Source: Candidatus Saccharimonadota bacterium (GTDB taxonomy: Bacteria; Bacteroidota; Bacteroidia; Cytophagales; Amoebophilaceae). Taken from it: a stretch of DNA of 32,000 nucleotides. The first letter of the stretch is position 1. Every line of letters begins with the position of its first letter. The notes below the pieces were generated by a model. It was not told where the DNA came from, did not search any database, and saw nothing but the letters and a program-made list of their open reading frames with translations. Positions 24,196-26,466 of the stretch are shown here, piece by piece. Position numbers and translations under genes: made by a program. The stretch is from assembly GCF_965196625.1 (NCBI RefSeq), contig NZ_OZ239769.1, forward strand, positions 150,001 through 182,000. Direction: 5' to 3'.

Positions 24196-24633
24196 CTAAA
24201 GCCCGAATCCAGATTCAGAGTAGGCCTGCAATGACCCTCTAGCATAACCAATGGGGTAGCCTTGATTGTAGCCTATATAATGACTGAGCCAATAGCTTCC
24301 AACACCAAGAATAATTAACGCTTGTGTTGCCTCCATTAGAGGCTGTTGACCTGTTTGTCTAAGCACTCCTGTAATTGGCCGAAGCCTAGCGCGTATCCAA
24401 CTGAACCTGGTTGCCCCTTGGGGAGCATTATCAACTTGTTGACTCTGCTGACCATCTAGCTCGCCCCTAGCAGGATCCATATCCATGTCCCTGATTTCGC
24501 CTTGCTCCTCCTGGAGCGCAGCAGGATCATCTGCGCCTAATCCCCGCTTTGTATTTACACAAGAAGATAAGGTGTTTAAGCTGAATAGACCAATCAATAG
24601 ACCCAGTCTACATTGTATATGTTTTGTTTTCAT
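24196..24633 (-). CDS. Lipoprotein-signal family member 1 (signal peptide, acidic/Q-rich linker, TM helix, G/Y-rich tail)
   Basis: MKTKHIQCRLGLLIGLFSLNTLSSC lipobox, TM helix ALIILGVGSYWLSHYIG, then YNQGYPIGYARG. Confidence 0.7.
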   Translation of the reverse strand: MKTKHIQCRLGLLIGLFSLNTLSSCVNTKRGLGADDPAALQEEQGEIRDMDMDPARGELDGQQSQQVDNAPQGATRFSWIRARLRPITGVLRQTGQQPLMEATQALIILGVGSYWLSHYIGYNQGYPIGYARGSLQAYSESGFGL

Positions 24634-24685
24634 AGCCTATGTATAATAGTTATCATCACTAACAAGTAGAATTGTTACTCAACAC

Positions 24686-25105
24686 TCATTTTTTCTTCTT
24701 ACCATATGGGTCACTAAACCCCTCCATAGTACCTCTTCCTGTTGAGTTCGGTTGCGTATAACTTTTACCTTGAGATGAGTTTGAATAATTAGAATAACTT
24801 GTACTGTTACTTGATGAATTATTAGAGCAACCCCTAGATATACCATTACGGTAACCATCATTGTGGCCACTGTTATAACCATTATAGTAACCAATAGTAG
24901 CAGATCCAGTAGCCAACAGCGCACCCGCGGTTACTAAGGCAGCAGCCTTCTTTGCTGTGTCTCCTTTCTTCCAGCTAGCTTTTTCTTCATTGCTCGAGCC
25001 CAACTCTGGTCTTGTATTTGCACAAGAAGATAAAGTACATAAGGTACTTAAGCTTAATAATCCAATAAGTAGACCTGACTTATATTGTATATATTTTTTT
25101 TTCAT
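24686..25105 (-). CDS. Lipoprotein-signal family member 2 (signal peptide, TM helix, G/Y/N/S-rich tail)
   Basis: MKKKYIQYKSGLLIGLLSLSTLCTLSSC lipobox, TM helix AAALVTAGALLATGSATIGYY, then NGYNSGHNDGYRNG and an S/N-rich tail. Confidence 0.7.
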   Translation of the reverse strand: MKKKYIQYKSGLLIGLLSLSTLCTLSSCANTRPELGSSNEEKASWKKGDTAKKAAALVTAGALLATGSATIGYYNGYNSGHNDGYRNGISRGCSNNSSSNSTSYSNYSNSSQGKSYTQPNSTGRGTMEGFSDPYGKKKK

Positions 25106-25220
25106 AGTGTTAAATGTTTAGTTGATTATTATTTATTTTAATGACGATAAAGCAGCATTACTTTAACAAGTAGCCTATGCTACTCATCATGGCTGAGCTG
25201 CTTCATGCGAATTTTTAAGA

Positions 25221-25285
25221 CAAAAGAAAAAAGCCCTGATTTAGGGAATAATCGAAGTGAACATGCGCTTAAAGCGCTTCACTTT
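25221..25285 (-). terminator. Tandem hairpins downstream of the 352-aa lipoprotein gene, a possible terminator
   Basis: The minus strand reads AAGTGAAGCGCTTTAAGCGCATGTTCACTT (a nested palindrome), then CCCTAAATCAGGG followed by CTTTTTTCTTTT. Confidence 0.35.
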
Positions 25286-25407
25286 AATATTTAATAAAAA
25301 TCAAATACAATTACAAATCTATATAATTAAAAATCAATATAGCGATAGAAAAACAACCACTGATGCGAAACCAGCTACCTGGCCAAAGCATCATCTTGAT
25401 TAGCACA

Positions 25408-26466
25408 TTATGAACAGTTTTTTAATTTATTTTGCACAATCTCGCTCAAGCCTTCTGTACCAGGTTTATCTTTAAACGATCTACCTCGTTTATTTTTTTT
25501 ACACAGCTTTGCCTTATCGCTTGCTCCAAGATGGTTTGCGATCTTTATACCTTCAGAATTCTGCAAATTTACAAAGTCCATGGCTGAATTTCCATGTTTA
25601 TTAAAGGAATAACAATCCGCACCTTTAGACTCTAAATCTTGAATAGATTTCAATTGTTGAAATTTTGCTGCTCCTATGCATGCGGTATTGTCGTTTGTGT
25701 CCTTCGCATCTGGATGTAAGCGGTTAACCCCAAACACACATTCGATACTCTCAGGCGAAAACCTATGCATCATAAGGTAATCTATTTGATTCTGTGTTAG
25801 AATATTCAGATCATGCTTATCGAATTGTAGACACGCACTTAGTTTTGTATCCAAATCATTTGGCGTCGGCGGTGTCGTAGTGGTACTATTCTTACCCAAT
25901 TTTTCTTTTTTAGGCGCTTTTGTTTTAGGAACTGCTGTAGTGCTAGGCGTTTCTGTAGTACTATTATTACCCCATTCTTTTTCGCCTTTCTTCATCGAAG
26001 CATTAAAAAGTTGTTCAATTTTATCAAGTTGATGAAGCTTAAAAGTGTCATGACCCGAACGATATCCTGGTAGCCCTCCAGGAATTCCTGCTCTGTTCCC
26101 CGACATCGTTGTGTTTACTGGAATAAGGCCAGATGATGAGGGCCAGAAATACCACCCTATAACCGAACCTCCTACTACGAATGTGCCTATGACTACTCCG
26201 TATAAAGCAGTTTTTTTCGATTTATACCAAGGAACTGGCTTAGAGAGACCATAAAATTTCAATATTTCGTCACATTTTTTAGATTGTTCGTCTGCTATTT
26301 TTATCTTCTCAGCAAGAGAAATGAATGGCACCTGTTTTTCACAGCCCCCTTGATTATTAGTACCTAACTGCCGCCCTGTATTGGCACAAGAGGATAATGT
26401 ATGGAAGCTTAACAATCCGACAAACAGACCCACTTTAGAACGCCTATATATTTTTTTTATTTTCAT
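25408..26466 (-). CDS. Lipoprotein-signal family member 3 with a T/P/K-rich linker and C-terminal ankyrin repeats
   Basis: MKIKKIYRRSKVGLFVGLLSFHTLSSC lipobox, TM helix LYGVVIGTFVVGGSVIGWYFW, linker NSTTETPSTTAVPKTKAPKK...TTTTPPTP. The ANK-like segment is DTNDNTACIGAAKFQQLKSIQDLESKGADCYSFNKHGNSAMDF. Confidence 0.75.
   Translation of the reverse strand: MKIKKIYRRSKVGLFVGLLSFHTLSSCANTGRQLGTNNQGGCEKQVPFISLAEKIKIADEQSKKCDEILKFYGLSKPVPWYKSKKTALYGVVIGTFVVGGSVIGWYFWPSSSGLIPVNTTMSGNRAGIPGGLPGYRSGHDTFKLHQLDKIEQLFNASMKKGEKEWGNNSTTETPSTTAVPKTKAPKKEKLGKNSTTTTPPTPNDLDTKLSACLQFDKHDLNILTQNQIDYLMMHRFSPESIECVFGVNRLHPDAKDTNDNTACIGAAKFQQLKSIQDLESKGADCYSFNKHGNSAMDFVNLQNSEGIKIANHLGASDKAKLCKKNKRGRSFKDKPGTEGLSEIVQNKLKNCS

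Follow-up and report, generated by a model that had tools for sequence, protein, structure and literature searches.

The DNA analyzed here, hereafter the window, is a stretch of 32,000 nucleotides (nt) of contig NZ_OZ239769.1 (positions 150,001 to 182,000, read on the forward strand), in which three consecutive minus-strand genes, designated M1, M2 and M3, encode proteins that begin with a common leader module. The corresponding protein records are assigned to 'Cardinium endosymbiont of Nabis limbatus', on a contig of 1.16 Mb, and all three are annotated as 'hypothetical protein'. The genes, which were delimited using the list of open reading frames (ORFs) and by exact protein match, and their leader modules are located as follows:

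M1, 24196-24633, minus strand: 145 amino acids, small subfamily B (WP_419241573); leader module, acidic/Gln-rich linker, RFSW..R..R amphipathic stretch, weakly hydrophobic helix, GYxxGYxxGYxxG.
M2, 24686-25105, minus strand: 139 amino acids, small subfamily A (WP_419241574); leader module, K-rich linker, Ala/Gly/Thr-rich helix, (G-x3)5 repeat, Ser/Asn-rich tail.
M3, 25408-26466, minus strand: 352 amino acids, large family member (WP_419241575); leader module, Cys-containing linker, hydrophobic helix, sequon-bearing stalk, C-terminal ankyrin-fold domain ending in ...KNCS.
M1 leader module, 24535-24633, minus strand: residues 1-33; lipobox LSSC, Cys25.
M2 leader module, 24998-25105, minus strand: residues 1-36; lipobox LSSC, Cys28; contains a 9-nt duplication.
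M3 leader module, 26362-26466, minus strand: residues 1-35, MKIKKIYRRSKVGLFVGLLSFHTLSSCANTGRQLG; lipobox LSSC, Cys27.

The module of the three proteins follows the consensus MKxKxIQ..GLLIGLLSL.TLSSC(A/V)NTxxxLG, with pairwise identities of 68-75% at nucleotide and 50-65% at amino acid level across 34 aligned codons. A preliminary description of the locus had put the nucleotide identity at 70-80%, which is right as to its high level and slightly above the measured values. An exact-seed repeat search recovers the three 5' copies as one repeat family (D2), and in a six-frame scan of the whole window with a profile built from 59 family N-termini the three modules score 73.4, 66.4 and 65.5 bits, while the next best segment reaches 3.7 bits. 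Since only the trio scores in the window, the common N-terminal module is confirmed and does not represent a generic property of signal peptides. The genes at 3358-4398 and 27114-27926 had also been listed as starting with lipobox signals; lipobox-like strings are indeed present in both, but neither shows similarity to the module in the six-frame scan (<=3.7 bits). Furthermore, the predicted lipoproteins CAHE_0406 and CAHE_0119 of Cardinium strain cEper1 carry leaders that are unrelated to the module, which is thus specific to the family rather than being shared by lipoprotein leaders at large. The refuting condition named in the preliminary description, a module no more conserved than other lipoprotein signals, therefore does not apply.

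The 9-nt in-frame duplication that had been noticed in M2 (TLC|TLS, 25028-25045) was found again both by DNA alignment and by Tandem Repeats Finder (25030-25052); the M2 ortholog of Cardinium sp. TP lacks this lineage-specific duplication. Poly-A runs of 7-9 nt, coding for the Lys-rich start of the protein, are located at or just after the start codons of several family genes (ATGAAAAAAAAA in M2 at 25094-25105; M3 at 26450-26466; position 2501 of locus L002 of Cardinium sp. TP). They are long enough for slippage, and a single sequence is available per locus.

The family extends well beyond the window. A profile search of 1.84 billion cluster representatives (clusters at 50% identity) returned 76 matches at E<=0.001, about 60 of which start at residue 1 with the module, corresponding to ~60 clusters that carry it, while the remaining matches reflect low-complexity or ankyrin similarity to the long part of M3. 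All matches with an identified source belong to Cardinium, from hosts that include Nabis limbatus, Sogatella furcifera, Tyrophagus putrescentiae, Dermatophagoides farinae and Brevipalpus; in the N. limbatus symbiont itself at least five members are evident, namely M1-M3, WP_419241666 and WP_419241683. Searches of a 5.8-billion-protein set with the module alone were limited by the E-value thresholds, returning no match with a three-sequence profile and only seven ORFs of 40-72 amino acids with the 59-sequence profile; ORFs of 40-75 amino acids that consist of the module and have no C-terminal part do occur. M3 used alone as a query finds only itself, and a genome scan with the pattern TLSSC[AV]NT gave six raw matches, none of which was confirmed, while a genome scan with the three-sequence alignment gave five loci. 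The C-terminal parts found behind the module span none at all (module-only ORFs), small Gly-x3 proteins and ankyrin proteins, in agreement with the earlier proposal of a fixed export-type module fused to divergent C-terminal parts; this is a true family, for which a role at the envelope or host interface is plausible.

No description of this leader-defined family was found in the literature searched, where Cardinium papers treat its members singly, as ankyrin or hypothetical proteins, and the family apparently has not been described before. The DUF1703 'novel gene family expansion' of Cardinium cCpun (PMC6387759) was considered as a possible earlier account of it and is a different family. Similarly, the published cytoplasmic-incompatibility candidates CAHE_0406/0405 were rejected as members, as the leader of CAHE_0406 is different. 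We classify the set as an apparently new, leader-defined Cardinium family of a known kind, namely that of lipoprotein multigene families with a conserved leader.

An alignment of 61 family N-termini exhibits the features of a signal peptidase II (SPII) lipoprotein leader. The n-region contains three to five K+R among the first ten residues in 53 of the 61 sequences and is followed by a short hydrophobic core of about 12-13 residues, which ends in a lipobox with L at -3 (56/61), S at -2 (51/61), S or A at -1 (61/61) and a Cys that is fully conserved (61/61) and always located at residue 20-28. M1, M2 and M3 each display this pattern of basic n-region, core and lipobox within ~30 residues. Most positions from -13 to +9 are near-invariant (e.g., L-13 in 59, G-10 in 56 and L-9 in 58 of the 61). 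The preliminary description held that similarity collapses right after the Cys; conservation in fact continues nine residues into the mature protein as C-(V/A)-N-T-x-x-x-L-G (V+2 50/61, T+4 58/61, L+8 54/61, G+9 48/61), the family motif after the Cys being V-N/H-T-R/K-Q/R-x-L-G. A PEXEL-like R-x-L motif in this region was considered and rejected, as the spacing between R and L is inconsistent across members.

The family member CAHE_p0007, a cEper1 plasmid protein that carries the module (MRKIRSKVFLSIGLLSLSTFSSCTNTRQSMNQ...), is classified as LIPO(Sec/SPII) by SignalP 6.0 (Supplementary Data 11, bioRxiv 10.64898/2026.06.05.730497), and the tables of the same authors list PredHel=1 in TMHMM, Pfam ankyrin repeats and detection by proteomics. 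Its gene is among the highly transcribed ankyrin genes of cEper1. Strain cEper1 also encodes lgt (CAHE_0749) and lspA (CAHE_0224/0225), neither of which has a counterpart gene within the 32-kb window.

The family-defining 5' cassette comprises ~50-100 nt of upstream DNA, a Sec/SPII leader and a fixed nine-residue mature start, C-V/A-N-T-x-x-x-L-G. We regard it as the most probable explanation, with a probability of roughly 0.6, that the trio is one small array of a Cardinium-wide family in which the fixed SPII leader, together with the post-Cys motif, targets modular proteins to the symbiont envelope or host interface. The pathway that we infer from these sequence features would begin with the leader taking the precursor through Sec, after which Lgt would lipidate, and LspA cleave at, the invariant Cys. 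Residues +2 to +9 would then act as a lineage-specific sorting or recognition signal, distinct from the acidic signal of Bacteroidota, and the variable modules of the resulting lipid-anchored protein would be displayed on the envelope or surface of the symbiont. Behind the fixed front end, different working parts would be attached, i.e., a glycine-zipper-type helix with a Gly-x3 repeat, or a helix with an Asn-x-Thr-rich stalk and ankyrin repeats.

A large share of arthropod species is infected with Cardinium, which manipulates host reproduction, and the delivery of its proteins to the host is poorly understood. A 35-residue leader and its upstream DNA mark at least ~60 diverged lineages, many of them ankyrin proteins, and as these include CAHE_p0007 of the cytoplasmic-incompatibility strain cEper1, the leader provides a ready catalogue of candidate envelope or host-interface proteins. 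It also represents a short portable tag with potential for directing reporters.

The cargo of contractile injection systems uses N-terminal tags, and the module could by analogy be a tag through which proteins are recognized by, or loaded into, a phage-tail-like (type VI subtype iv or antifeeding-prophage-like) injection system, rather than a Sec leader. The sequence conservation of 22 positions, which is more than Sec and LspA would need, is consistent with such a tag, and Cardinium expresses a phage-tail-like system abundantly (bioRxiv 10.64898/2026.06.05.730497). Known cargo tags are, however, hydrophilic and disordered rather than composed of a hydrophobic core plus lipobox, an invariant Cys that ends a hydrophobic run is the signature of a lipoprotein, and no family gene is located beside tail-like genes in the loci examined, which makes this explanation very improbable.

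The features of the mature regions, all on the minus strand, are as follows:

M1 second hydrophobic segment, 24271-24321, minus strand: ALIILGVGSYWLSHYIG; the weakest of the three.
M1 Gly-x3 repeat, 24235-24276, minus strand: IGYNQGYPIGYARG; GYNQ-GYPI-GYAR-G.
M2 second hydrophobic helix, 24893-24943, minus strand: AALVTAGALLATGSATI; preceded by WKKGDTAKK.
M2 Gly-x3 repeat, 24830-24892, minus strand: GYYN GYNS GHND GYRN GISR G.
M3 second hydrophobic helix, 26158-26208, minus strand: ALYGVVIGTFVVGGSVI, with G-x3-G spacing; preceded by the basic cluster KSKK.
M3 short Gly-x3 patch, 26050-26079, minus strand: GGLPGYRSGH.
M3 ankyrin-repeat-fold domain, 25411-25824, minus strand: residues about 215-352, from AlphaFold2 and Foldseek.

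Each of the three proteins possesses a single hydrophobic segment after the leader, followed by 24-65 residues in M1 and M2 and by about 250 in M3. The Kyte-Doolittle means over 19 residues are strong in M3 (1.73), borderline in M2 (1.51) and weak in M1 (1.14). The shared architecture of linker, transmembrane (TM) helix and Gly/Tyr-rich patch that had been proposed for the trio is therefore present as an architecture, while the helix is less certain in M1 and M2 and the patch is more precisely a strict Gly-x3 repeat, which in M1 and M2 runs straight out of the hydrophobic segment with Gly at every fourth residue.

It could be argued that the module is not cleaved at all and instead represents a signal-anchor, i.e., the first of two inner-membrane TM helices of an N-in/C-in protein, with the Cys and its flanks serving in packing or in a disulfide. 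Most members do have two hydrophobic segments, the leader was modelled as a helix by AlphaFold2, and conservation of the whole core would fit a functional helix better than a disposable signal peptide. Against this, the hydrophobic run preceding the Cys is short, with ~12-13 residues, and terminates in a canonical lipobox whose Cys is invariant, and SignalP 6.0 calls the homolog LIPO and not TM. Furthermore, the basic cluster before the second helix would be periplasmic, the ankyrin domain would reside in the bacterial cytoplasm without an obvious role, and module-only and helix-less members occur (e.g., P0067). We therefore consider a signal-anchor unlikely, and a cleaved and lipidated leader remains the preferred reading.

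Two small types and one large type can be distinguished within the family. Small type A (M2, P0010, P0007 and others) consists of a K/N/S-rich linker, an Ala/Gly/Thr-rich helix, the Gly-x3 repeat and a Ser/Asn tail, and small type B (M1, P0025, P0011, P0017, P0014 and others) of an acidic linker, an N-R-F-S-W...R motif, W..G..Y and then GYxxGYxPGYAxG. The large members (M3, P0006, P0021 and others) possess a basic cluster, a helix, an Asn/Thr-rich stalk, a conserved helix (DP.vL...I..DI....FS...I..WL..GL.INAKD..G.TLLM) and ankyrin repeats. The mature regions of the trio had been described as unrelated; as M1, M2 and M3 each have orthologs elsewhere, these regions are different, yet neither unrelated nor orphan, and they have a helix and a Gly-x3 repeat in common, with an ankyrin fold in M3.

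Helix faces with a Gly-x3 pattern are of a type through which helices associate with one another, and the Gly-x3 helices of M1 and M2 are probably self-associating, membrane-proximal modules. AlphaFold2 modelled M2 with low confidence (predicted local distance difference test, pLDDT, 51.6) as one long helix at residues 56-90. Soluble Gly-x3 repeat helices are found in the FliH/YscL and Yae1/Lto1 types, which M2 and M1 resemble in having uninterrupted G-x-x-x over four to six turns, and the FliH model shows weak similarity to the Gly-x3 region (E 0.029 for M2 and 0.007 for its ortholog P0010), far short of the curated cut-off. Unlike in those proteins, the repeat of M1 and M2 is Tyr-rich and continues out of a hydrophobic helix.

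The combination of a lipobox and a downstream TM helix, previously considered odd, is unusual and has precedents. A lipobox and a downstream Gly-rich helix are combined in one polypeptide in SlyB and in the Rickettsia 17-kDa antigen, and the G-x3-G spacing of the M3 helix and of the M1 and M2 repeats recalls glycine-zipper lipoproteins. The single helix of the trio proteins, however, differs from the hairpin of the latter, and no Pfam glycine-zipper match was obtained for M1-M3 (none at E<=0.1). The same combination is found in the unimolecular spanins (PMC6139136), whose helix is located at the extreme C-terminus and whose genes belong to a lysis cassette, whereas the trio helix is internal and the neighbouring genes are housekeeping genes without phage context. 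A PHROG search returned no spanin match, and only sub-threshold matches to families of unknown function (E 0.015 and 0.06).

The large members were analyzed using an alignment of M3 with 21 Cardinium relatives. Pfam ANK matches were found in 16 of these 22 proteins (best E 1.8e-76), while M3 itself has no Pfam match at E<=0.1. With the family alignment, AlphaFold2 modelled residues about 221-350 of M3 at pLDDT 93-98, and all 50 matches listed by a Foldseek search of the PDB are ankyrin-repeat proteins (DARPins, gankyrin, ILK and others; E 1.6e-4 to 1e-3), with target TM-scores of 0.7-0.8 for compact ankyrin proteins and a maximum of 0.80. The number of ankyrin repeats per member ranges from two to more than ten, and this part of the large members probably serves in binding of host proteins. 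In ending in ankyrin repeats, M3 and most large members resemble the Legionella Ank/Leg proteins and the ankyrin (ANK) expansions of Wolbachia and Amoebophilus, and a relative shows weak NCBIfam similarity to Legionella AnkH. Such effectors lack Sec/SPII leaders and carry type IV or other secretion signals, whereas the Cardinium repeats are preceded by a lipoprotein leader, a helix and a stalk rich in sequons. Cardinium genomes encode 18-46 ANK proteins each (PMC6387759).

Of separate note, a Cys in the last ankyrin loop of the large members (..PC(T/I)KN; LCKK in M3) co-occurs with a Cys at or beside the C-terminus (KKCS, KKCI or EKC; KNCS in M3), both lying within 25411-25500 in M3. About 12 large members have both and 10 have neither. 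This pair could be a disulfide, a lipidation site or a mere subfamily signature.

Conservation of the cassette also includes DNA upstream of the coding region. An alignment of 12 family 5' regions from three genomes revealed conservation of the 50-100 nt before the ATG, common to paralogs and genomes, in three blocks: AAGCAGATGGAnCAATATGGATAG, then caTTGr-AATAATnCTGCTTAGTnGTnATTATAA, then TTAAACATnAATACT abutting the ATG. In the trio these regions are as follows:

M1 upstream region, 24634-24684, minus strand: proximal blocks only; extends to the M2 stop codon at 24686-24688.
M2 upstream region, 25106-25203, minus strand: all three blocks present.
M3 upstream region, 26467-26566, minus strand: AAGCAGATGGAGCAATATGGATAG ... 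CATTGGAATACTTCTGCTTAGTAGTAGTTACA ... TTAAACAATCAATACT, then ATG.

M1 retains only the proximal blocks because its start is located 50 nt past the M2 stop. A sigma-70 scan of the locus gave no match at the conserved upstream block, and no Rfam match was found in the 5' regions of the locus. A sigma-54 promoter in the TTGG-AATAAT-CTGCTT block was rejected, because several copies, counted by hand, lack one base between GG and GC, and others have GA in place of GG. The 5' cassette was also tested for a conserved RNA structure, which was rejected (-0.87 kcal/mol, no covariation).

Within the module, identical residues are encoded by the same codon in 459 cases as compared to 244 expected from codon usage, a 1.88-fold excess (M1-M3 and loci L001-L005). 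Particular codons are used at particular positions across paralogs and genomes, i.e., AGC for Ser-7, TCT for Ser-2 and Ser-1, and ACA for Thr+4 (9/9). This excess of synonymous conservation stands without a conserved RNA fold and without sign of gene conversion.

Locus L002 of Cardinium sp. TP contains family genes in the same order as the trio and all on one strand, i.e., a large ankyrin gene (642), a small type A gene (2058) and a small type B gene (2501), the last being the counterpart of M1. The M2 module is 84% identical at nucleotide level to its TP ortholog (L002 2058), as compared to 71-75% to its paralogs in the window. Among 11 cassettes, identity is 0.633 within and 0.622 between genomes, and the nearest neighbour of each of the M1-M3 cassettes is in another genome; mean pairwise identity amounts to 0.52 upstream and 0.69 in the coding module. 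Besides the 9-nt duplication, the trio contains no intragenic tandem repeats, nor does it contain switch-type inverted-repeat pairs. The order conserved in TP, the equal identity within and between genomes and the lack of switch repeats argue against recent duplication, concerted evolution and Mycoplasma-style variation, and also against cassette-like diversification, as suggested earlier, being a process still under way at this locus. The trio is old and has been kept by purifying selection, the order of large, small type A and small type B genes being kept between bug and mite symbionts. These data argue that the cassette has long been under purifying selection, with exchange or divergence of the parts behind it.

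A formal parallel is found in Mycoplasma. The Vlp proteins of M. hyorhinis, the Vsp proteins of M. bovis and the Vsa proteins of M. pulmonis are encoded in tandem arrays with a conserved promoter/5' untranslated region and prolipoprotein signal and with divergent mature parts. The Cardinium family shares with them the conserved 5' region and leader, the divergent mature parts, the multigene tandem arrays and a host-associated, reduced genome, and its 5' cassette could permit recombination or phase switching for antigenic or functional variation. Such a role would agree with the same-strand tandem arrays, with a promoter-to-leader region that is conserved next to unalignable mature parts, with the 1.88-fold synonymous codon excess, with the poly-A runs at the start codon and with the module-only fragments, which suggest gene turnover. 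However, the Cardinium cassettes are not near-identical (52% upstream to 69% coding), evolve in an ortholog-like manner without concerted evolution and keep their order between strains; moreover, neither repeat-built mature regions nor repeats of switch or invertible-element type were detected. The Cardinium family further differs in that conservation extends nine residues into the mature protein, in the helix and ankyrin or Gly-x3 modules and in belonging to diderm Bacteroidota, and a vertically inherited cytoplasmic symbiont would be under little adaptive-immune pressure. Variation of the Mycoplasma type is thus quite improbable here, and a fixed targeting cassette is preferred.

In the Cardinium of D. 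farinae (CP101107.1), locus L007 carries eight to nine tandem same-strand family genes in ~7 kb (7164-14048), several of which are truncated or frameshifted; together with the module-only ORFs, these broken genes indicate birth and death within the family. This array is located near TamB and an EngB-type GTPase gene. In Cardinium sp. TP, a family gene at position 2504 of locus L004 has ATA at its start position (..ACTATA AAT CAA AAA..) and is probably a recently inactivated copy.

Several points weigh against the proposed targeting of lipid-anchored modular proteins, or qualify it. The lipoprotein status of M1-M3 is predicted from the lipobox pattern and from the SignalP call for a homolog, the second hydrophobic segment of M1 is weak, and surface exposure of the family proteins is an assumption. 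The 22 near-invariant leader positions and the codon excess go beyond what Sec and LspA recognition would need and leave a further constraint, at the protein or nucleic acid level, to be explained. As to sorting, the surface lipoproteins of Bacteroidota carry a lipoprotein export signal (LES) in which a polar or basic residue precedes an acidic pair at about +3 to +6, e.g., C-x-K-(D/E)2, SDDDD or SDDFE (Lauber et al. 2016, PMC5080379). The Cardinium proteins belong to the same phylum and likewise combine an SPII leader with a short conserved motif after the Cys, which in the LES spans +2 to +6 and decides location (PMC5080379). Adjacent D/E residues within +2 to +7 are nevertheless found in 0/61 family members, and 54 of the 61 have no acidic residue at +2 to +6; the post-Cys motif is therefore not the known surface-export signal of Bacteroidota, and it points to a sorting motif in this phylum distinct from the acidic one.

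The topology of the mature part is a further point of this kind. The family mean of K+R per 15 residues is 2.7 before the second helix and 0.87 after it. For a stop-transfer helix that follows a cleaved Sec leader, the positive-inside rule predicts basic residues on the other side. The position of the basic cluster N-terminal of the second helix renders the simple topology, with a periplasmic linker and a cytoplasmic C-terminus, doubtful; that topology would also place the ankyrin domain inside the bacterium.

In the large family members, the residues beyond the second helix are enriched about twofold in N-x-S/T sequons. Within 110 residues past the helix, 118 sequons were observed in 25 members as compared to 55.0 +/- 6.0 expected from composition-preserving shuffles (z 10.5; z 9.6 for N-x-T), while S/T-x-N, the same pattern reversed, is depleted (z -3.4). 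Neither the linker before the helix (z 2.1) nor the ankyrin part (z 2.0) shows a comparable excess, and other proteins of the window show none (24 sequons, 32.9 expected). The enrichment was replicated in ten further genes (39 versus 17.1 +/- 3.4, z 6.4). M3 has five such sequons (residues 118-195, about 25882-26115), M2 has six in its Ser/Asn-rich tail (about 24743-24823) and M1 has none. D or E is located at -2 in only 11 of 112 post-helix sequons, i.e., the extended PglB sequon D/E-x-N-x-S/T is rare, and the sequons are thus not PglB-type sites.

The side on which the basic cluster is located, the sequon enrichment and the codon excess leave limited room for a different topology, in which the C-terminal part would cross a membrane, possibly that of the host, and be glycosylated. 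In such an arrangement the second helix would be inserted in a host membrane of endoplasmic reticulum (ER) type, with the basic linker facing the host cytosol and the stalk, alone or together with the ankyrin domain, beyond the membrane and glycosylated at N-x-S/T; alternatively, a symbiont N-glycosyltransferase would modify the sites. The proteins would then tether or decorate host membranes. Consistent with this are the basic residues N-terminal of the helix, the directional and replicated sequon enrichment restricted to the post-helix stalk, and the marginal hydrophobicity of a helix with no C-terminal basic flank, which could for that reason pass the bacterial Sec system. On the other hand, there is no known post-translational route by which a folded bacterial domain of 100-300 amino acids would cross the host ER membrane, ankyrin repeats are normally cytosolic, M1 lacks sequons and those of M2 are in a Ser/Asn-rich low-complexity tail, and the sequon excess might reflect an unknown structural preference. 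We judge host-membrane insertion unlikely, though deserving of some weight. The wrong-side basic cluster and the directional N-x-T enrichment could reveal an unexpected topology or modification, and were the insertion to hold, an obligate intracellular bacterium would have evolved eukaryote-style sequons and would couple lipid-anchored envelope proteins to host membranes. Targeting to the symbiont envelope or host interface by the SPII leader and post-Cys motif is still the reading that we favor.

The window as a whole represents ordinary chromosome, encoding a ribosomal-protein operon with SecY and RpoA, NAD kinase and NAD-dependent DNA ligase, and further a class-V aminotransferase, an EngB-type GTPase, whose gene the trio adjoins, a Mutator-family transposase and a SET-domain protein. 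The gene for the last (22486-23184, plus strand; annotated protein-lysine N-methyltransferase, Pfam SET E 6.6e-5) is located directly beside the trio, and its neighbour (21188-22468, plus strand) encodes a 426-residue protein without detectable family. Both look like effector candidates, being eukaryote-interacting by appearance.

Of the two genes with lipobox-like starts outside the trio, that at 27114-27926 (plus strand) is oriented divergently from the trio and encodes an Asn/Lys/Ser-rich protein of 270 amino acids, whose start (FISVGC) weakly resembles a lipobox and is unrelated to the family leader, and whose C-terminal part is coiled. The other, at 3358-4398 (minus strand), referred to as interrupted in the preliminary description, encodes a Cys-rich protein of 346 amino acids with an LTSC lipobox-like start and is abutted by the Mutator/IS256-family transposase gene at 2133-3347 (plus strand; Pfam E 3.8e-120). 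Finally, the intergenic region between M3 and M2 contains a 16-nt unit (TAAAAATCAATATAAT) repeated 2.9 times at 25295-25341, between a T-rich terminator-like stretch and the conserved upstream block of M2.

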